Source of the DNA: an uncultured Planctomycetia bacterium
GTDB taxonomy: Bacteria; Omnitrophota; Gorgyraeia; Duberdicusellales; 4484-171
NCBI GenBank assembly: GCA_964483625.1
Contig: CAZABB010000003.1
Span: forward strand, 21,895-85,894
Length of the DNA: 64,000 nt
Direction of reading: 5' to 3'
Shown: positions 177-62,516 of the stretch, one piece after another
How positions within the stretch are numbered: position 1 is the stretch's first letter
Layout of the letters: every line of letters begins with the position of its first letter
The notes under the pieces: model-generated
The model's input: only the letters and a program-made list of their open reading frames with translations
Database searches by the model: none
Told to the model about the DNA's origin: nothing
Position numbers and translations under genes: made by a program

Positions 177-3100
177 GCGGAAAGAACGATAAAATTCCAT
201 TCGGTACGTTTGAATACACGGGAGATGGTTCAATTTACCGATGCTTTGGATCAACTTATTGCTGAGCGAGGCATGCGGATAAGTGTGGTTATCGGGGGAT
301 TAAGGGGCATCTTCGGGGATGAGGAAAAATTTTCCTGGCTGGCTGATATCAGCGAGAAAGAATTTTCCCGCGCCGTGAATCGATGCCGTAAGAACCATCC
401 GGGAATCTTTATGTTTTGGAGCAGTTCGGAACTGGTTGTGGGAAGCGAAATCCACGGGGATATCTTCGAAGCGTTACAGCAGGCGCAATCTTTACGAAAA
501 GACGCCTATGAGATTTTGGCGAAGAGAGAACAGCGCTGGTGTTCGGTTTCCTGCCGGGAATTCGAGGAAATCGTCGCGGTGTGTATCGCCGGAGAAATCC
601 ATTCTTCTGTTTCCCCATTTACGGAGCTGGATAGGGAAAATTCCTATGGCCGGTATCAGAATGTGGAGGTGAATCAGGAGAGGGTCATTGCGCTTTCTGA
701 CGCGATCTCCGATACGATCGATGAAGTGGGCCCGTATACGCCGGAAGTATTCGGGCGAGTGCGGGAATTTGAGTCGTGCGCGTGGATCGCGGAAATAGGT
801 TCAGACGAATTTTTCCGGTTTGCCGGTTATCTGAGAAAGGAATACCGGTATGCTTTCGACGTATATTGTTCCCGTACCTATATTATCGGTGAACGGCAGA
901 AGTCTTATGTATGGGAAGCATTGCAGGCGGCGCGTTCGATTCGTTCCGACGCTTTCCGGATCATAGCCGAAGCGTATCCGGTATGGCACCAGATGGGTGA
1001 AGACGGATTTGCCGACATACTTGCCTGGTTAAAACGGGGCGATGTATCCTGGAGTTTCCAGCGGCAACTTGCCGATTTAGATGAACAGAATCATTACCGG
1101 GTATGGAAACGGCACGCTATCGAATTAAGCAAGGCGCGGGTTAACGCTCTCTATGAATTTCTTCAGGGAGAAGGAGATGAAGATGAGGTGGACGCGTCTG
1201 CGGCGGGGATTATAGAGCAGGTAGGAATCGGCATGACAGAGATTCTATCGAGTTTGCGGAGAGAAGAAAGCTTTACCTGGGCTGCTTTTCTCTCTCGGGA
1301 AGAATTACCGCATTTTGTCCGGTACGTGTCTAGGCACTATTCCTTTCCTTTTTCCTGTACGGCGGTTTCGCTGATCGGTCCCGTGCAGGAGGAGTATATT
1401 CTGGGAGCTCTTCGTCAGGCGTGTTCTGTCCGCAAAGACGCTCTGGCGCTTATTGCCGGAGAGCGGCCGCTCTGGAGAGATGTGAATGCGCGGGAATTTG
1501 AGGAGATAATCAGAAAAAGAGGGCTGGCTGTTTCATATTTTGCTGAAGACGTAGAGCATCTGGATATCAAAAATATGTTCACCTGGCTGGTAAGATATAT
1601 TGATCTCAACGACCGTATCCCTGAGATAAAAGAAACAGCGGCGGCTTTTTCTTTCGATCACGCCTCCGTAAGAAGAATAATCCCGCTGGGTGAATTGAAA
1701 CAGATCGGAGCCGACTCGATACTCGCTCTGCAGGATTACCTGTGTGACTCTATCCTGCACGGAAGGCCGCTGCAAAGCCTTGCCGAATATATGTATGAAC
1801 AGGGGGTACACGATTCATATGCCTGGATAAGCCTGAGTCGGCAAAAAGAACTGTTTGAGGGAGCTTTGCTTTTATTCCGCGCGCGCGGCAATCAGTCCGG
1901 AATGGAACGTTGTTTTCGGCACCTGGGTTTTACCTATGAGAGTATCGCGCTGACCGGCGCGACGCCGGGATCATCTCATCGGCAGCTTTATTATCGGGCC
2001 AAGGCTGTCGTCGCGCACCTGGAGGCGGCACAGGTTTCCCGGGATTTATGGCGAAAGGGGATTCCTTGTGAGCCGGGACAAAGATCGTCCAGTTACTGGG
2101 AGGAAGCGGTCGACCGTCTCTGTAACGCGATCGAAGTGATGTATCGTGAGGACGAGCAGAGAGTGCTTGATGAACAGGATGTGCCTTTGTTGGCGCGCCA
2201 GTTTAGAGGCGGGTTACACTCTGTAGGGCTGGAGGACTGGCTGTCGGCTGGAGAGCGGAGAGACATGCAGGAAAAAATTATATGGAGACAATGGTTTCGT
2301 ATGGTGCAGAGATTGTCCCGGTCGATGATTATGACTTCCTATATCGATGCCCTCGATCCTTCTGACGAAAGAATGCGTATGGATGTCTTGCGCCGTGAGA
2401 GTGAGACCTTTTCTCTGGCTCATCGCGCTTATGACGCGATAGAACAGGTATGTGCCGCAAAAAGCACGGGAGAACGTTTCCGCGATGATTTCCGCGCGCT
2501 TCATGCTCCGTATCGTGCCGTTTTTGCTGAACGGCAGGCGCAGGTAGTGGCGCACGTGGCCGAAGCGGAAGAAGTGATAGATCGGATACGAACCCGGCAG
2601 GGGGAAGTCTACGCTGAATTCATGCGTTCTCTCCTTGACAGTATTCAGCGCATTCTGCCCGAGGATCATTACCAGGAATTCGTATTGGATAAAGAAGGAG
2701 GCTTACTTTACGGTATTACCCTGTGTCAAAAGGCGCTGGCATCGGTCGATAAGAGATGTTATCAGGGGCATCGCGTGGATATCTGTTATCTCGTCGCTAT
2801 GGCTATTTTAGAGAGCCTGTTACCCCGGAGCGGATTGGAACGTGCCGCGTATGCCCGGGCGCAGCTGGCGGCTCCGATCTTGGAACGGGCCATTTTCCCT
2901 GCGCCGGATTCCACTGCGCCGCAGCAAAAAGAGAAGAAAAGGGAGTTCAATGCCCGGGTGATAAGGGGGGTCAGGGATCAGTTTGGCCGTAAGAAACTTC
3001 ACCGGGGAGAACAGCCGTGCATTGAGGAAATATTATTGATGGATGCGTGGGAGATGATGACGACACCTTCTTTGCGTATGGGAAGGCTTTTGCGTCAGGT

Positions 3101-6100
3101 AAGAAATATGCTTGAGGCGGGGAAACTGCCGATTATCGTTACCGATAAAGATTATTCGTTGATCGAGGTGGTCATTGATCGCCATATGTGCCAGTTGCTT
3201 TTGGCGTTTTTTGAATTAGTGTGGGATCGTTTCGGCATTTCTCTGCCATTCATCATTCTTACCAATAATACGAAATCAAATACCATGAAAACGGTGTGGA
3301 AGATTCTGATGGAAGAATTCGAGCAGAGATATCATCATCTGTCTGAAAGCGGGAAACGGAGAAAAAAACGTGAATTATTCGGCAACTTCATCATTAATTC
3401 CTGCGGCGGGCAAGTCTGGGTATGGGATGAAGCGGCAGACAGTGAGGAATTCCGGTTCATTGAAGAGCTGACGATGGAAGACGAAGTCGTTGCCGTCGTC
3501 CGGGAGGGATTTGATTGTCTCATCACCGAATATACCGATACTACCCGGTATGCTCCCGGGGAATGCATGCCGGTTCATCCTTACGGTGAAAGGATAGATC
3601 TTCGTCCCGGCGTTTCCGGCGACATGATCGGGATGACTCTTAAAATTCCCGGCCGGGATATTCCCAAAGATGAAAAGCGGCAATTCGATCCCGATAAGAC
3701 AAAACGGCAGATATGGAAAAAAGCGCTTTGGAGCATTTTAAAAGAACTCTGTCATGGGCTTGAACCGGATCTTGCGGAAAAGGTGAAAAGTCTCACCATA
3801 GAGATCGGCGGGACAACTTCAATCGACGTGACGGTGGGAGATAAGCGCCGGCGGATACAGCAGGTCATACGGCAGCTCGCTGTCCGTATGGAACTTCCGG
3901 AGGACGAAATAAAGAAAAGAATATTGTATTTCGGTGATGAATTCGATGTTGACGGCGGGGATTTTACCTTAATAGGACTGGTAGCGTTACTGGTGAATTT
4001 AGGGAGGACAAAGGTCGTTGCCGCCGAAGCGGTACGTGCCGGCCACATCTTCGTCAATCCCGAAAGCGACGAGCTTATCGGTCCGGAGCGGATGCGTGAA
4101 TATCTGAAGGCATTGATGGTACTTATTAACGTATTGCTTTCTCCCGATATATCTCCCGACGCTCTTCGGGAAAACATCGGGGAAGCAGTCCAGCCCGAAA
4201 ACTGGCATCTAAGCTCGTCCGTGGAAGTGGGGGCGCTCATCGAGCGGTATTTTATGCTCGATGCCGATATGTGGGAGTTAATACAGGATGTCGCTCGGCA
4301 GGGAGAGGATATTACAAGATTTATTGAAGCATTATATCAGTGTGAAGATTATGACGATATTGTCGCAGAAATATTACGGTCATTTTTCGCCCGGGAGCCT
4401 GAAGATGCCGCTCCCGACCATGATATCTTCATCGGTTTTGTCCGCGCCGATATCGCGTATCAGCCGACAGAACAGCGAGTTCTCCATGCAATTGAGTGGC
4501 AAGCGACGCTGAATGAATGGATAGGACGTTCGGATGATATAAGGGAATATATTAATATGTATCAGGTATTGAGAGATATGTTTGATGATTTTCTTCATGT
4601 ATCTTATTCGGAAAACGAATCTGGTATGAGAAATATCCCCGGACAAGGTGTTATCTCCGAGGACGGCCTCTCTTCCGTGGCTGCAGGTGCCCTCACCTTT
4701 GTCTGGGGTGTCTTTATGCCGCATGCGGCCGGGCCGAATTACCCACCAATCACGGGAGAAAACGAAAGCGCAGTGATTATCCTTGTCGTATCGGGATTGA
4801 TCCTTGCCGGTTGGATAGCTCTGGTATTGTTCCGGCAGGAGATATTGTTTTACAGTATCCGGAAACAGGCGCCGCCGTTGACGATACGGATAGTGATCCG
4901 GGTACTTTTCCCGCTTGGTTCTTTCCCTCAATGCGTGCTTGTCGTCGGTCCCAGCGGTGTAGGGAAAGACAAATTAACCGGATCATTATTTTCCCGCTAT
5001 CCGTCTCAGTTCACCCTGCTTCGGTTGACAACGACGCGCCGGCCCCGCCCTCAGGAAACGGATAATCCTTCAATGAAGAAGAACTATATGAGCCCGGAGA
5101 AATTTTCGGCTATGGTTAAACAGAACGCGTTTCTCATGAGCTGGGGTAACTATACCCATGCCTATGGATTGGAAGAACGGGAACTAAAACGATGTATCGA
5201 AGCGAGAAAGACCGTCATCATCCATACCGCGTCTCCCAAGGGAGTAAGACGCTGGAAAAAAGCTCTGCCTCAGGCAAAAGTCGTCCTTGTCTCGCCGGTT
5301 CCTATGGTATCCAGCCCGCTCCGTCCCGAGGAAAGAGATCAGGTAAAAGCGGTTCTCAGGCACAGGATGAGACAGAGAGAGGCTTTGATGCAGGCTGTGT
5401 TTGAGGTTAGGTTAGAGAAAGGAATAAAGCTCCTGGACGCGTTTCGTCGGGGAGAACTTGATTATGACGTGTGTGTCACGAATGGAAAAAATTCCGGTCT
5501 AGAAAGAGTCCAGCATGAATTTTGCCGGACGATTATCTCTGAAATTCAACCTCAGCGTTATGCGGGGCCGTTGATGGTAGGGGTTGCGTTAGGGATCGTT
5601 GTGATGGGATTGGCGAGCCCGGCCGGTTTTTCCGCGACCTTGGAGTTCTTTCTCCTAATGATCTTCCTGGGGATGATGTCCCCGGTCCGCGGCGAAGAGG
5701 ATCAGCCGTCTCCCGCTCAGAAAAAAGTCGTTCTTTTATTGGAGGAACATTCAGTGACTGGCGGTGCTATTTCGGAAATACCTTTAGATGATTCGATGAT
5801 ATTACGGGATAAGGTGGGAGTAATTGCCTTAAGAGAGCGGGTGGCTCGGGAAAATATCCGGCAAACGACCGGGCGGGGAGTGCGGGCGCTTGAGGGTGTT
5901 CTGAGAAGACCTGACGGGGGAAGCAAGGTCGAATCGATTGCCGCAGAGATAGCTCAGGCATTGACCGAATCCTTTATCTGGCTGGCGCAGGCTCCGGTTG
6001 AAGAAGTGATTCAACGGTTGGACTGGGTTCCCGTCTCTCTCGAACGGATAAGGAATATTGTTCAGGGTGATTCTGTTATCCAGATCGTGGGAGGAGTGGT

Positions 6101-57190: not shown

Positions 57191-57478
57191 ATGCAACCTG
57201 ACGCCAATGTCGCTATCGCCCAGTTTTTACCGCTGATTTTTCTTTTCGTCGTCTTTTACTTTCTGCTTATCCGTCCGCAGAAAAAGAAACAGGCTGAACA
57301 TAAAGCTCTCATCGAAGGACTCAATAAAAACGATGAGATCGTAACGGTCGGAGGGGTACACGGCACGGTAATCAATACCAAAGAGAAGACGTTCGTGATC
57401 CGGGTCGATGACAATGTGAAATTCGAAATCGATAAACAGAGTGTAGCCTATTTAAAAAAGAAACAGAATAATGGTTAA
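57191..57478 (+). CDS. yajC: Preprotein translocase subunit YajC
   Basis: A single N-terminal TM helix, FYFLLIRPQKKKQAEHKALIEGLNKNDEIVTVGGVHGTV. SD AAGGAGG. The 3' end overlaps the secDF start. Confidence 0.9.
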   Translation: MQPDANVAIAQFLPLIFLFVVFYFLLIRPQKKKQAEHKALIEGLNKNDEIVTVGGVHGTVINTKEKTFVIRVDDNVKFEIDKQSVAYLKKKQNNG

Positions 57479-59636
57479 TCCCAAAGATCTCAGATTCCGT
57501 CTCATCGGAATCCTCGGCATCATCTTCTTAAGTATCTTCTATATCTTCCCTTTAGGTGAGAAGATCAACCTCGGTTTGGACTTAAAAGGGGGGATGTATC
57601 TGGTGTTAAAGGTAGATACCTCCAAAGTTGCTCCCGATAAGGTGAACGATGCTACCGAAGTTGCTCTGGAGATCATTCGCAACCGTATCGATGAGTTCGG
57701 CGTTAAAGAGCCGACGATTCAGGTGCAGGGGAATAATTCTATCCTGGTACAACTGCCCGGTGAAGTCGATCGCGACCGGGCGATCAAGTTGATCGGTCAG
57801 ACGGCGTTTTTGGAATTCAAAATGGTCGAAGATGACCAGCAGAAACTCGATCAGGCGAAAGAAGGCGCCGTTCCCGCAGGGTATGAACTGAGCTCCTATG
57901 ATGGGAAACCGCTTTTACTTACCGAAGAAGCCCCGATTTCCGGCGCGGATGTCGCCAGCGCCCAGTCGAGTTTTGATTCCAATATGTTTCCTCTGGTGAC
58001 CCTGCAGTTTAATAGTGAGGGAGCCAAGAAGTTCGCTGCGGTAACCCGGGATAATGTAGGCAACCGTCTGGCCATTGTGCTTGATGGAGTAGTTAAAAGC
58101 GCTCCCGTGATTCGGGAGGCGATCGGAGCCGGTGAAGCTCAGATTACCGGCGATTTTACCGTACAGGAAGCGCAGGATCTGGCGTTGGTGTTACGGGCCG
58201 GGGCTCTCCCGGCGCCGCTGGTGATTGAGGAAGAACGTACCGTAGGGCCTCTTCTGGGGAGCGATTCTATTCGCCGCGGCGTTCAGTCGATCGCGGTGGG
58301 AGCGATTCTGGTAGCTATATTTATGCTCATCTATTATCTTCTCGGCGGGGTTGTAGCCTTGGCGTGTCTGGTGCTTGATCTCCTTTTTGTCATGGCGGGC
58401 TTGAGTTTCTTAAAAGCGACGCTGACGTTGCCGGGCATTGCCGGTATGATCTTAACGCTGGGGATGGCCGTAGATGCCAATGTCCTTATTTTCGAACGCA
58501 TTCGGGAAGAGCTTAATCAGGGTCGGCCTCTAAGTGTTGCGGTGAAGAACGGGTTTGACCGCTCCAAGCGGACGATTTTCGATGCCAACATTACTACATT
58601 GATTGCCGCGCTGTTTCTCTTCCGGTTCGGGACCGGGCCCATCCGGGGATTCGCCACGACTCTTTCTCTGGGTATTGTCGCCAGTATTTTTACCGCGGTT
58701 TTTATCGGCCGGACAATTTTTGCGATCCTCTTGAATACCAGGATAAAGAGGATGACCATGCTGCGGATTCTCAAGGACCCCAACATCAATTTCGTAAAAA
58801 TCAAAAACATATGTCTTATTGTTTCTTTGATTCTCATCGTTATCGGGGCCGTAAATTTCCAGTCCCGCGGCGACGATATGTACGGTATCGATTTTAAAGG
58901 CGGCCAGATCCTGCAATATCAGATTACGCCTGCGCCGGAGATCGAAGATGTGCGTGACGTTCTTGAGACCAATATTGAGCAAAAAGTAACGTTGCAGTCG
59001 TTTCGAGATATCGCCGGCGGCGTTATTATTAAAAGCAAAGAGGATATTACCGCTCAAGTCGAACAAACCCTCAATGAAAACTTCGCAGACGCACAGCGTC
59101 TGAGTATCGATACGATTGGTCCGGCGGTAGGGGAGATCCTGCGTACGAAAGCTCTCCTGGCGGTCACGCTGTCGCTTCTGGGCATATTGATCTACATCGC
59201 CTTCCGGTTCAAACATTTTGATTTCGCCTTTGCCGCGGTATGCGCGGTGTTTCACGATGTGTTGATCAGTATGGGGTTTCTTGCTTTGTTCGGATACGAA
59301 ATTAATCTTCTTACCATTACGGCACTGCTTACCCTTGCCGGATATTCGGTAAACGATACCATTGTCGTCTATGACCGGATACGGGAACTCTCTCCCAAAC
59401 TGTACAAGCTGCCGTTACCGGAGATCATCAATCGGGCCATTAATCAGACGCTTTCCCGTACGATCATAACCTCATTTACGACCATTGCGGTTGTCCTCTG
59501 TATCTTTATCTATGGGGGTGAAGCTCTGCGCGGATTTTCATTCACTCTGCTCGTCGGGTTTATGGTCGGGACTTACTCCTCGATATACATTGCGTCTCCT
59601 TTAGTTCTCTTTTTCCGTCGGGCCCGTCTCCACTAA
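57471..59636 (+). CDS. secDF: Fused protein translocase subunit SecDF
   Basis: 721 aa. A SecD periplasmic domain and 6 TM helices, then a SecF-type periplasmic domain and 6 TM helices. The start overlaps the yajC stop (ATGGTTAA). Confidence 0.9.
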   Translation: MVNPKDLRFRLIGILGIIFLSIFYIFPLGEKINLGLDLKGGMYLVLKVDTSKVAPDKVNDATEVALEIIRNRIDEFGVKEPTIQVQGNNSILVQLPGEVDRDRAIKLIGQTAFLEFKMVEDDQQKLDQAKEGAVPAGYELSSYDGKPLLLTEEAPISGADVASAQSSFDSNMFPLVTLQFNSEGAKKFAAVTRDNVGNRLAIVLDGVVKSAPVIREAIGAGEAQITGDFTVQEAQDLALVLRAGALPAPLVIEEERTVGPLLGSDSIRRGVQSIAVGAILVAIFMLIYYLLGGVVALACLVLDLLFVMAGLSFLKATLTLPGIAGMILTLGMAVDANVLIFERIREELNQGRPLSVAVKNGFDRSKRTIFDANITTLIAALFLFRFGTGPIRGFATTLSLGIVASIFTAVFIGRTIFAILLNTRIKRMTMLRILKDPNINFVKIKNICLIVSLILIVIGAVNFQSRGDDMYGIDFKGGQILQYQITPAPEIEDVRDVLETNIEQKVTLQSFRDIAGGVIIKSKEDITAQVEQTLNENFADAQRLSIDTIGPAVGEILRTKALLAVTLSLLGILIYIAFRFKHFDFAFAAVCAVFHDVLISMGFLALFGYEINLLTITALLTLAGYSVNDTIVVYDRIRELSPKLYKLPLPEIINRAINQTLSRTIITSFTTIAVVLCIFIYGGEALRGFSFTLLVGFMVGTYSSIYIASPLVLFFRRARLH

Positions 59637-59694
59637 CAAATCAAGAAGCAACTTAATGCCTATACGTATCTCATCCGCTCTTTACTACACAAAC

Positions 59695-59719
59695 AGGTGA
59701 CACCTAAAATGTATAGTTA
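59695..59719 (+). repeat. 25-bp direct repeat, left copy
   Basis: AGGTGACACCTAAAATGTATAGTTA. It ends 2 nt before the transposase ATG. Confidence 0.9.
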
Positions 59720-59721
59720 CC

Positions 59722-60591
59722 ATGGAATTATATGATTTAATTGAAAAAGGGAAAGTAAAGCGATACTTGAGTGCGAAAAACAAAGTAGTCTATCCAGGAG
59801 GCGTCTATCATATTACCCATCGGGCTCCTGGCCGGGAAGTCCTTTTTTTAGAGGATACGGATTATCTGCGTATGTTAGCATTATTAAAAAAAACGGCGCA
59901 AAAATTTCAATGGGATATTTTTGCTTTTGTCCTTATGAAAAATCATTTTCATGTTTTATTAAGAATAAAGGAAGCAAATCTTTCCCAAGGGATGAAGAAA
60001 CTATGTGAATCCTACGCGATGTCTTTCAATGCAAAATATGAAAGGAAGGGGAGCGTTTTTTCTCGTCCCTATCGTGCGGCGTTATGTGTTGATGATGTCT
60101 ATTTGCTCGCCATATCGTTATATATCCATCTTAATCCATTGAAGGCGAGGATTTGTGAATCGCTTGATGAGTATCGCTGGAGTTCTTTGGATCTTTATAA
60201 ACGAGATAAGAAAAAATCTTTTGTAAATGCTGATTCCGTATTAAATGTTTTATCCAATGATCGGACACTATCAACGAAGAAATATAAAAATTTACTTCAA
60301 CAGATGACCCAGTTAGAATTTAAAAACATTATCGAAAGGCCACGTTTTATTGAATTTTTCTGTGAAAAAACAAGGGGTTATTTACGTAAAAATAGTAATT
60401 TGAACGATAGAGTAGAGGAAGAGTTATTAAAATTTAAGGATAAAAAGAGATTACGAGAACCGAAGGAAATTCAAGCGCGGAAATATTTAATTGAACAGTT
60501 ACTGGCGAGAGGATATTCAGTTTTAGATATTGCTCGGCGATTAAATCTTACTCGTAAGGCAGTGTATGATATTATTAACTATACAAAATAG
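59722..60591 (+). CDS. REP-associated tyrosine transposase (IS200/IS605 TnpA-like HUH Y1 nuclease) with a C-terminal helix-turn-helix extension
   Basis: VYHITHRAPGREVLFLEDTDYLRMLALL...WDIFAFVLMKNHFHVLLRI is the HuH motif. ...GSVFSRPYRAALCVDDVYLLAISLYIHLNPLKA carries the catalytic Tyr region. The C-terminus is YLIEQLLARGYSVLDIARRLNLTRKAVYDII, an HTH. Confidence 0.75.
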   Translation: MELYDLIEKGKVKRYLSAKNKVVYPGGVYHITHRAPGREVLFLEDTDYLRMLALLKKTAQKFQWDIFAFVLMKNHFHVLLRIKEANLSQGMKKLCESYAMSFNAKYERKGSVFSRPYRAALCVDDVYLLAISLYIHLNPLKARICESLDEYRWSSLDLYKRDKKKSFVNADSVLNVLSNDRTLSTKKYKNLLQQMTQLEFKNIIERPRFIEFFCEKTRGYLRKNSNLNDRVEEELLKFKDKKRLREPKEIQARKYLIEQLLARGYSVLDIARRLNLTRKAVYDIINYTK

Positions 60592-60614
60592 GTGACACCT
60601 AAAATGTATAGTTA
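60590..60614 (+). repeat. 25-bp direct repeat, right copy. It overlaps the transposase stop codon
   Basis: AGGTGACACCTAAAATGTATAGTTA. Confidence 0.9.
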
Positions 60615-60623
60615 AGCGTTGAT

Positions 60624-62516
60624 ATGTTTGAAACGTTTAAAATCTATACGCACAAAGAGATTTCGCTCAATGAGGTCAGTTCTCAGCTGGCTCATCTGGG
60701 ATATCGCCGCGTCGATGACGTAACCGAGGAAGGTGATTATTCGGTGCGGGGGGATGTTCTGGAGGTTTTCTGCGCCAATTTCAATTTCCCCGTCCGCATG
60801 GAATGGACGTTTGAGATTATCGATAAGATATACAGTTTTGACAAAACCATCCAGAAAAAACTCATCGATTACGATTTCCTCATCGTCATTCCTTATCGCA
60901 AGAAGATCAAAAAATATACCGAAGATATCCCCCTGGATATTGTGTTGAAGATAAAAAAAGGAGATTTTGTCGTCCATACCCAGTACGGTATAGGCAGATT
61001 TCTCGGTGTAAAAAAGATGGAAGTGAAAGGTGCCCAGGAGTATTTTTTTGCGATCGAATATGCCGATAACGCCAAACTCTATATTGCCAAAGAACAGGCG
61101 CATCTGGTTCAGAAGTACGTAAGTTTTACCAGTCGTGCTCCCAAATTATCAAAGCTGGGGACGAAAGAGTGGAGCCGCCTGAAAGAGAGGGCGCAGAATG
61201 GAATACGGAAGTTTGCTCTGGAACTTCTGCGGATGGAAGCCCAGCGTAAGCTGATCGGAGGATTTCGCTATGGTTCCGATACCGACTGGCAGAAGCAGTT
61301 CGAGGACCTTTTCTCGTATCAGGAGACCGAAGACCAACTTAAAGCTACGGCTCAGCTTAAAAAACATATGGAATCGAATGCGTGCATGGATATGCTTGTC
61401 TGCGGCGATAACGGCTACGGGAAGACCGAAGTCGCGATGCGAGCGGCATTTAAAGCCGTCATGGGCGGCAAACAGGTTGCTTTTCTTGTGCCAACGACAA
61501 TTCTTGCCTACCAGCATTACATTAATTTGAAAGAACGCACCAGAGATTTTCCCGTCGAAGTTCAGATGCTTTCCCGTTTCCGCACCGGGGGCGAACAAAA
61601 AGATATTGCCCGCCGGCTGGCTGAAGGAAAAATTGAGATCATCGTGGGGACGCACCGGTTGTTATCGAAAGATATCGCCTTCTGTGACCTGGGACTTCTG
61701 ATCATCGATGAAGAGCATCGTTTCGGCGTCTTATCGAAAGAGAGGATAAAAAAGATAAAAATAGGCATCGATGTCCTCACCCTTACCGCAACTCCTATCC
61801 CGCGTACGTTATACATGGGATTGATCGGCATTAAGGATATTGCCCTGATCCGCACTCCGCCGAAAGAACGCCTGGCGGTAAAGACTGAAGTCATGGAATT
61901 CTCTTCTGGCCGGATTCACGCTATCATCACCAAAGAAGTCCGACGCCGTGGCCAGGTGTTTTTTATCCATAATCGTATTGAGAGTATCTATAAAATAGAA
62001 AAGAAACTAAAGAGTATTCTTCCCGGCGATATCCGTATCGCGGTCATCCATGGCAGAATGCGACCTAAGGAAATCGAAAAGATTATGCTTCAATTCATTG
62101 AAAAAGAGGTCGACGTACTCCTTTCTACCGCGATTGTTGAGTCGGGGATCGATATCCCGGGCGCGAATACGATTATCGTCAACGATGCGCATCGGTTCGG
62201 ATTAAGTGATCTGCACCAGTTACGCGGCCGGGTCGGCCGGAGCACCCGGCAGGGATATGCTTATTTTGTGGTCGGCCGGTTTTCCTCGCTATCTACCGAT
62301 GCCGAAAAGAGGCTTCGTTTGCTTGAGGAGTTTTCTCACCTGGGGGCGGGATTTGAGGTGGCGATGAGTGACCTGGAATTGCGCGGCGCCGGCAATCTTT
62401 TGGGGACCCAGCAGCATGGTTTTGTATGGATGATCGGATTTGATTTGTATTGTCGTTTATTGAAAAAAGAGATAGAATATCTCAAAAACACATTTAAGAT
62501 CGAGATAGGAGGATAG
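60624..62516 (+). CDS. mfd: Transcription-repair coupling factor, compact form of 630 aa
   Basis: LGYRRVDDVTEEGDYSVRGDVLEVF, then the RNAP-interacting block DFVVHTQYGIGRF, SF2 motifs LVCGDNGYGKTEVAMRAAFKAV and LLIIDEEHRFGV, motif VI HQLRGRVGRS, and the TRG motif DLELRGAGNLLGTQQHG. Roughly 500 aa shorter than canonical Mfd. Confidence 0.8.
   Translation: MFETFKIYTHKEISLNEVSSQLAHLGYRRVDDVTEEGDYSVRGDVLEVFCANFNFPVRMEWTFEIIDKIYSFDKTIQKKLIDYDFLIVIPYRKKIKKYTEDIPLDIVLKIKKGDFVVHTQYGIGRFLGVKKMEVKGAQEYFFAIEYADNAKLYIAKEQAHLVQKYVSFTSRAPKLSKLGTKEWSRLKERAQNGIRKFALELLRMEAQRKLIGGFRYGSDTDWQKQFEDLFSYQETEDQLKATAQLKKHMESNACMDMLVCGDNGYGKTEVAMRAAFKAVMGGKQVAFLVPTTILAYQHYINLKERTRDFPVEVQMLSRFRTGGEQKDIARRLAEGKIEIIVGTHRLLSKDIAFCDLGLLIIDEEHRFGVLSKERIKKIKIGIDVLTLTATPIPRTLYMGLIGIKDIALIRTPPKERLAVKTEVMEFSSGRIHAIITKEVRRRGQVFFIHNRIESIYKIEKKLKSILPGDIRIAVIHGRMRPKEIEKIMLQFIEKEVDVLLSTAIVESGIDIPGANTIIVNDAHRFGLSDLHQLRGRVGRSTRQGYAYFVVGRFSSLSTDAEKRLRLLEEFSHLGAGFEVAMSDLELRGAGNLLGTQQHGFVWMIGFDLYCRLLKKEIEYLKNTFKIEIGG

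Follow-up and report, generated by a model that had tools for sequence, protein, structure and literature searches.

In distinguishing subclass 2.1 of the TnpA_REP proteins, Quentin, Siguier, Chandler & Fichant (2018; PMC6006769) described long proteins with a short serine motif downstream of the tyrosine, a spacing of about 58-67 amino acids from the HuH motif to that tyrosine and, in subgroup 2.1.2, a C-terminal Bac_DnaA_C, HTH_23 or HTH_28 domain. The HTH_23/28 and DnaA_C tails were regarded as possibly related, no REP-like (repetitive extragenic palindrome-like) sequences or secondary structures were found near the genes, and it was suggested that the helix-turn-helix (HTH) may not recognise flanking repeats (PMC6006769). 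The same authors equated the subclass with the TIRYTs of Di Nocera et al. (2013) (PMC6006769), which are RAYT-like genes bracketed by inverted repeats, some of them self-complementary or overlapping the gene ends; some of these terminal inverted repeats (TIRs) form moderately abundant families, and unrelated and self-complementary TIRs are also listed (PMC3733652). The later literature on REP recognition does not treat subclass 2.1. Here we consider a locus in an uncultured Planctomycetia bacterium, placed by GTDB in the Omnitrophota, in which a gene for a Y1 (HUH) protein of 289 amino acids lies between secDF and mfd and is flanked by two copies of a palindrome. It belongs to a 64-kb stretch of assembly GCA_964483625.1 (contig CAZABB010000003.1, positions 21,895-85,894, forward strand), which we call the window and to which all window counts below are limited. 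We think it probable that the locus is a REPtron- or TIRtron-like unit, made up of a single-copy, chromosomally fixed, HTH-bearing, RAYT-like Y1 gene and two cognate palindromes; from shared features rather than from a tree, it would fall with the subclass 2.1-like or TIRYT-like kind. The parts of the unit are these:

59681-59719, + strand: upstream copy of the 39-bp dyad, centred on A59700; 59695-59719 identical to the downstream copy, left arm degenerate
59722-60591, + strand: Y1 (HUH) nuclease/transposase-like gene, 289 amino acids, with C-terminal HTH, RAYT/TnpA_REP-like
60575-60615, + strand: downstream, intact copy of the dyad, centred on A60595 and ending 8 nt 5' of the mfd ATG; in order, TTAACTATACA / AAA / TAGGTG-A-CACCTA / AAA / TGTATAGTTAA

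A reading of the stretch from its sequence alone (the sequence-only reading) had drawn attention to an exact 25-mer, AGGTGACACCTAAAATGTATAGTTA, on the + strand at 59695-59719 and again at 60590-60614, and to the position of the gene between secDF and mfd; these coordinates proved correct. The upstream 25-mer is separated by 2 nt (CC) from the ATG at 59722, and the downstream one begins at the A of the TAG stop (60589-60591), so covering two of the three stop bases. The pair lengthens to 29 nt with one mismatch (59691-59719 and 60586-60614), and no third copy occurs in the 64 kb even when up to three mismatches are allowed (shuffles predict none). The 25-mer is itself part of something larger, a 39-bp imperfect palindrome of two tiers, of which it covers the centre and the right arm (from -5 to +19) and whose copies in the window lie in direct orientation. 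Folding of the 25-mer together with its flanks, a check proposed by the same reading, gave a clear result on one side: the downstream copy, TTAACTATACAAAATAGGTGACACCTAAAATGTATAGTTAA, forms, as single-stranded DNA, a predicted hairpin of -10.1 kcal/mol (z = -5.1, equalled by none of 200 shuffles), nearly matched by the opposite strand, and its left arm codes for the final N-Y-T-K of the protein plus the stop. In the upstream copy the centre and right arm are perfect, the left arm (ACTACACAAAC) has a 1-nt deletion and two substitutions, and the whole (59681-59719) folds no better than its shuffles (z = +0.3). The contrast that had been drawn between direct repeats here and the hairpin or REP structures normal for such genes therefore falls away, because the repeats are hairpin-capable palindromes, the expected flanks of genes of this type. 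Searches at the locus for intrinsic terminators and for Rfam RNA families found neither.

The protein had been called RAYT-like, and that identification stands. It matches Pfam Y1_Tnp (1e-11), and the NCBIfam model NF047646 (REP_Tyr_transpos) scores 69.2 bits (E = 3e-19, covering 4-146 of 146; equivalog cutoff 80), against 15.9 bits for the IS200 model NF033573 (cutoff 55). Sequence search of solved structures with the family profile gave marginal matches only (4er8 at E = 0.3, and HTHs of the YlxM, ComA and resolvase types), so that a fold search was needed to place the Y1 core. The AlphaFold (AF2) model, made from an alignment of 34 homologs on which our statements about conservation also rest, has a pLDDT of 88, and its top Foldseek match in the PDB is 4er8_A, the E. 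coli TnpA_REP with a REP hairpin (E = 2.4e-6, TM 0.78 on the target); the transposases (TnpA) of IS608 and then ISDra2 rank next. Three regions of the protein matter most here:

59941-59952, + strand: codons of the HUH metal-binding motif N74-H75-F76-H77, with N74, H75 and H77 invariant in the 34 homologs
60121-60138, + strand: codons of Y134-I-H-L-N-P139, the RAYT-type catalytic tyrosine motif by homology
60460-60576, + strand: codons of the tri-helical HTH domain, helices 247-262, 267-273 and 278-285, with which the AF2 model ends

Within the tyrosine motif Y134, I135, H136 and N138 are invariant among the 34 homologs and P139 is almost so; the distance from H75/H77 to Y134 is 57-59 amino acids; and the YRWSS that follows (151-155) has an invariant Y151 and at least 90% conservation of R152-W153-S154-S155. 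Since the HUH and tyrosine residues are invariant across the family, catalysis is under selection. The C-terminal HTH is also conserved among the homologs. In the window protein its Pfam matches, at residues 256-286, are weak (HTH_23 at E = 6e-4, under the gathering score), and across the family HTH_23 is matched by 27 of 34 members (best 1e-8), HTH_7 by 24 and HTH_28 by 18. The sequence-only reading was right to see an HTH, but its label 'DnaA-C-like' finds no support in Pfam, whose Bac_DnaA_C matches none of the 34. What emerges is a HUH enzyme of RAYT-like type whose tail is a generic tri-helical HTH.

The protein database contains over 1,300 relatives, the majority of them assigned to Candidatus Omnitrophota and Elusimicrobia, and 411 loci were found among 185,579 species-representative genomes, where Desulfobacterota, WOR-3, Stahlbacteria, NPL-UPA2 and Thermodesulfovibrionia are also represented. 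A look-up of the window protein itself returned one identical Logan contig of 5 kb and no other genome.

The evidence that the repeats belong to the gene comes from the flanks of about 85 homologous loci, from several phyla and differing genomic contexts (numbered L001 and so on below). Most of them have an imperfect palindrome of 33-47 bp from a few to about 100 bases 5' of the start, and in most a second copy overlaps the stop or follows it. The sequence of the palindrome is specific to each lineage, whereas the geometry is common to them: an inner 5-bp stem at ±2-6, a spacer at ±7-9, ACA/TGT at ±10-12 and an outer arm from ±13, which is most variable at ±13-16 and in which complementarity reaches ±19. 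When 108 palindromes were stacked without gaps on their centres, and Watson-Crick pairing was compared with that of shuffled partners, the following picture emerged:

±2-5: inner stem, paired in 80-93% (control 38-49%)
±7-9: poorly paired spacer of A and T only, paired in 57-68% (control 38-51%)
±10-12: ACA/TGT, about 90% conserved, paired in 95-97% (control 55-81%)
±13-16: outer arm, with all four pair types, paired in 91-96% (control 29-49%)

The arms thus covary across the family, and even ±1 is complementary in 65% (27% in controls). In many loci the coding sequence runs into the left arm of the downstream copy, so that this arm specifies the final residues of the protein, which accounts for a recurrent family C-terminus, L-N-[YFL]-T-K. 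In the closest relative (L001, protein 78% identical, synonymous divergence, dS, about 1) the palindromes differ from those of the window at about 3 of 41 positions, a conservation of about 90%, while the remaining spacer cannot be aligned, which argues that the palindromes are under selection; the ratio of nonsynonymous to synonymous divergence (dN/dS) of the Y1 gene between the two is 0.11. Gene and palindromes are under purifying selection. The sequence-only reading had envisaged relatives with the same gene but lacking the repeats; the relatives keep them. One metagenome-assembled genome (CAYNIO01) contains at least five paralogs (L005, L015, L016, L030 and L073), 41-51% identical to the query, each with a distinct cognate palindrome.

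Several details of individual loci may be mentioned at this point. About 17 of the best 120 homologs are found only on Logan contigs of 934-1054 bp carrying this gene alone, and the contig of L002 starts and stops within palindromes; assemblies evidently break at the flanking repeats, which is an independent sign of how general the bracketing is. L003 has two tandem palindromes on each side of the Y1 gene (2890-3000 and 3855-3960). In L164 the downstream palindrome (4860-4900) takes in the Y1 stop as well as the start of mfd, whose ATG lies in the right spacer/arm (AAAATGTTT), and in L171 a palindrome of about 41 bp on both sides runs straight into an ATG each time, that of the Y1 gene and that of rnfB. 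In about 12 loci (L039, L042, L056, L036 and others) the gapless detector gave no strong palindrome on one or both sides, for which true loss, copies with indels and wrongly set gene boundaries are candidate reasons. Stem mismatches, scored as G·T versus C·A as a guide to the strand (or RNA) that forms the hairpin, pointed to the bottom strand 16 times and to the top strand 5 times in upstream copies, and 6 and 10 times, respectively, in downstream copies, and so were inconsistent between sides.

How might the protein recognise a palindrome that differs from lineage to lineage? Mutual information between protein columns and palindrome positions (67 loci, average-product correction) was highest for residue 279 with +14 and +13, and was also high for residue 283 with +15 and +16. 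Both residues lie in the predicted recognition helix of the HTH, at its positions 2 and 6, and in the window protein they are K279 and D283. The identity of residue 279 goes with the outer arm as follows:

Q: outer arm TGTAA
R: outer arm TGTGA or TGTGY
A: outer arm TGTCNC
S, T, V, F or H: outer arm TGTTGC
K: outer arm TGGGTAA, or TGTATAG in the window

Change-with-change contrasts over 33 phylogenetically independent sister pairs gave the same result: change at 279 goes with change at ±13/14 (table [[13,2],[4,14]], p = 3e-4) and change at 283 with change at ±15/16 (p = 7e-5). For ±13/14 and ±15/16, respectively, 279 and 283 outrank every other one of the 289 residues. Controls in the sister pairs (neighbouring variable HTH residues, and the inner stem) were not significant. 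We infer that the recognition helix of the HTH reads the outer arm, whether as duplex or as hairpin stem. In the duplex the half-sites with the conserved ACA/TGT would be 22 bp apart, about two helical turns, and the symmetry extends to ±1, for which a hairpin loop has no need, a hint that the duplex form matters too. Residues covarying with the inner stem were also sought, and were set aside: the top ones are scattered in the variable middle region and resemble proxies for divergence.

In some genomes the palindromes have spread. Among 66 loci with a strong palindrome, 17 have further cognate copies at a distance from the gene (kilobases, with a threshold of 250 bp), amounting to 40 copies in 0.81 Mb, with arrays in L037, L064 and L078 and with both orientations represented. 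All but three of the 40 are extragenic (3/40 in long open reading frames (ORFs), against 72% of random positions), and in the genomes of these 17 loci the palindromes literally deserve the name of repetitive extragenic palindromes. The window itself has no more copies, even of the 11-bp core with one mismatch. Genome-wide abundance of the 25-mer in inverted pairs had been named beforehand as the mark of an ordinary REP; in the window the 25-mer is not abundant, and the patterns AGGTGNCACCTAAAATGTATAG, searched in a collection of genome contigs, and AGGTGACACCTWAAAYGTATAGTTA, searched in one of metagenome contigs, had no match.

These properties resemble those of the classical REPtron, as represented by E. 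coli TnpA_REP (4ER8) and its REP/BIME sequences, in the structure of the Y1 core, in the combination of a single-copy, vertically inherited gene with cognate palindromes, in the possession by each paralog of its own repeat family, and in the extragenic dispersal seen in the genomes of some relatives. They differ from it in that the window repeats have no 5' GT[AG]G guide, the palindrome being two-tiered and symmetric through its centre; in the extra helical and HTH tail of about 130 amino acids; in the lack of dispersal in the window; and in the orientation of the flanking copies, which across the family are more often direct than inverted. The likeness to subclass 2.1 (2.1.2) and the TIRYTs lies in a RAYT-like Y1 protein of about 290 amino acids with a HuH-to-tyrosine distance of about 58, the serine motif YRWSS, a C-terminal domain of HTH_23/HTH_28 type and no GTAG REPs, together with, as in TIRYTs, bracketing by repeats that may overlap the 5' or 3' end of the gene and are moderately abundant only in some genomes. 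These shared protein features, the absence of GTAG REPs and the repeat bracketing make this a gene of the subclass 2.1/TIRYT kind. There are nevertheless differences from the subclass as described, since most homologs here have a strong two-tier palindrome of fixed geometry on both sides and their recognition-helix residues covary with its outer arm, and, unlike in most described TIRYTs, the motif GGGGWSAS is not present in the window flanks.

The genes on either side bear on the residence of the unit:

57471-59636, + strand: secDF, fused, the upstream neighbour
60624-62516, + strand: mfd, compact, 630 amino acids, the downstream neighbour

The order (rpsP-yajC-)secDF-Y1-mfd-surA-pdxA is found in the window and in four further lineages (L001, L003, L164 and L165), L003 being a variant in which dcd is inserted between secDF and the Y1 gene. 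Across the five, the Y1 proteins are 55-78% and the Mfd proteins 63-78% identical. The site can also be unoccupied, as a comparison suggested by the sequence-only reading bore out. In L019 the gap between secDF and mfd is about 2 nt, with no palindrome-like sequence at the junction, and the family gene is found some 3 kb further on, 3' of mfd; in L084, a comparably diverged relative (Mfd 66%), the gap (2450-2821) contains an unrelated, AT-rich ORF for a hydrophobic protein of 123 amino acids, with neither Y1 gene nor palindrome. A scan of metagenomes with Mfd returned mostly distant proteins, and only L084 was informative. From these sequence comparisons there is evidence that the Y1 gene was once inserted at the secDF-mfd junction and that it can be absent from it. 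The compact form of Mfd (630-636 amino acids) is shared by L001, L003, L084, L164 and L165; the window product has UvrB_inter, CarD_TRCF_RID, DEAD and Helicase_C domains, with no match to the C-terminal TRCF domain and with most of the N-terminal UvrB-homology module missing.

Is the unit, then, still an autonomous mobile element? It might be a minimal insertion sequence (IS) of the IS200/IS605 type, in which the palindromes would be the same-strand hairpins of the left and right ends and single-strand 'peel and paste' would be the means by which the 0.93-kb unit moves. Several observations fit. The HUH/Y1 fold is that of the IS608 and ISDra2 TnpA proteins, and close to either end of the unit in the window there is a similar imperfect palindrome, the two sharing one strand and lying in direct orientation like the ends of IS608. 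The composition looks foreign (34% GC, against 47% in the flanks, and 31% against 55-58% at third codon positions), and the AT content of the family gene exceeds that of its flanks in 71 of 79 loci (median 4 points). The site is empty in L019 and otherwise occupied in L084; homologs of similar divergence lie in unrelated contexts (L168, L004 and L171, the last, JGI Ga0438317_0003421, 2910-4010, being between rnfA and rnfB in an rnf operon on every contig returned, with its protein present on 10 contigs); and some genomes have several paralogs. We nevertheless consider this reading unlikely. There is one copy of the Y1 gene in the window (a single tblastn match), and no locus set that we examined contained near-identical copies of the element, the paralogs being about 45% identical to each other and having palindromes that are all different, whereas an IS would be expected in multiple identical copies. 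The same locus is occupied in five lineages whose neighbouring genes have diverged as much as the Y1 gene itself, and identical proteins keep one context, as is seen for the two family proteins present on the largest numbers of contigs (10 and 8). Of 40 loci, 25 have the two flanking copies in direct and 13 in inverted orientation, with 2 ties, and the 13 inverted pairs fit poorly with a strict requirement for left and right ends on the same strand; moreover, solo palindromes have spread without the gene. The protein, at 289 amino acids, is about twice as long as the TnpA of IS200/IS605 elements (about 130-155) and falls far short of the cutoff of the IS200 model (16 bits vs 55), the upstream copy is partly decayed, and homologs are scarce on mobile replicons (21 distant matches in 72,556 plasmid records, and 1 on phages). 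The overall profile is that of a domesticated RAYT-type gene, neither an active IS nor a fresh insertion with target duplication.

A different view would make the palindromes mainly operators, and the protein a dimeric HTH regulator of its own promoter, and perhaps of mfd, with any nuclease function secondary or vestigial. The dyad symmetry through the centre, the spacing of the half-sites and the covariation of recognition-helix residues with the outer arm are all as expected of an operator. Position is suggestive too: the upstream copy adjoins the ATG and contains a weak promoter-like sequence, TTTACT-18-TAAAAT (59681-59710), the downstream copy ends just before the mfd start, and in L164 and L171 the ATG of the next gene follows directly. 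An operator role for the upstream copy is possible. As a full account of the locus, however, we regard it as quite improbable, since the invariant HUH and tyrosine residues imply selection for catalysis, promoter-like matches are no commoner than in shuffles, and autoregulation does not explain arrays of solo copies far from any family gene. A regulatory function is in any case compatible with a REPtron- or TIRtron-like unit rather than exclusive of it.

The sequence-only reading had suggested duplication of a target or attachment site. Perfect direct repeats that bracket an AT-rich gene exactly would fit such an origin, with insertion of a foreign gene generating the 25-bp pair, but it can hardly be right, since most of the 85 or so loci have palindromes of their own on both sides, the empty L019 junction contains nothing similar, and a geometry that is conserved, with a sequence that covaries with the protein, in dozens of unrelated contexts means that the repeat belongs to the element and not to the target. 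Nor do we know of target duplication in Y1/HUH transposition (IS200/IS605), where it is not expected.

Returning to the interpretation that we favour, of a resident REPtron- or TIRtron-like unit, some points weigh against it. The covariation statistics are confounded by phylogeny and divergence, though the control residues were not significant. The RAYT score lies under the curated NCBIfam cutoff (69 vs 80). REP-like dispersal is not seen for this organism, inasmuch as neither the 64-kb window nor the contig collections contained extra copies. The GT[AG]G foot that marks canonical REPs is missing from the palindromes: neither window copy has GTAG or GTGG there, the conserved element being instead the ACA/TGT at ±10-12. 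The AT-richness of the Y1 gene, together with its lower dS (about 1.0 between the window and L001, compared with 2.6 for mfd and saturation for surA), could mean that it arrived later than the synteny suggests; candidate causes of these features, which contrast with a residence that seems long, are composition constraint, gene conversion and later replacement. The trees of Y1 and Mfd disagree in part: between L164 and L165, identity is 75% for Mfd against 60% for Y1. Finally, to our knowledge biochemical activity has been shown for no member of the subclass.

We envisage that such a unit would work through binding of the HTH to the outer arm, which would position the HUH/tyrosine core at the inner palindrome. 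E. coli TnpA_REP and IS608 TnpA bind hairpins and cleave single-stranded DNA; by analogy, the core might then cut one strand and join it again at a site that is single-stranded or extruded. With no spread of repeats within the 64 kb, the unit would be a resident, probably self-regulating gene and not an active transposon.

A broader proposal, which we offer as tentative and rather doubtful, is that the HTH-tailed Y1 proteins of Omnitrophota, Elusimicrobia, Desulfobacterota and their allies, with their 39-bp dyads, constitute a distinct and unrecognised REP/RAYT class with split recognition, co-opted here as a regulator. Residues 279 and 283 of the HTH would then act as a re-programmable code for the variable outer arm, and the inner palindrome would be the substrate of the HUH core; where a genome retains no more than the two flanking copies, the protein may have become a site-specific regulator of its own gene and of a neighbour (mfd here, rnfB in L171), rather than a disseminator of repeats.

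For the window alone the outcome is modest: the repeats are the expected cognate palindromes of a RAYT-like gene, and the locus is an ordinary resident member of a little-studied, HTH-bearing branch, with no new type of insertion. It is the regularities across the family (geometry, dispersal and covariation) that are interesting, more than the locus itself. The largest TnpA_REP subclass, that with a C-terminal HTH, has had no known DNA partner, and the family comparison offers a concrete substrate for it. For these domesticated HUH enzymes, a family so far uncharacterised, it also supplies a recognition rule that can be tested, and it gives a way to ask how REP-like repeats arise and disappear.

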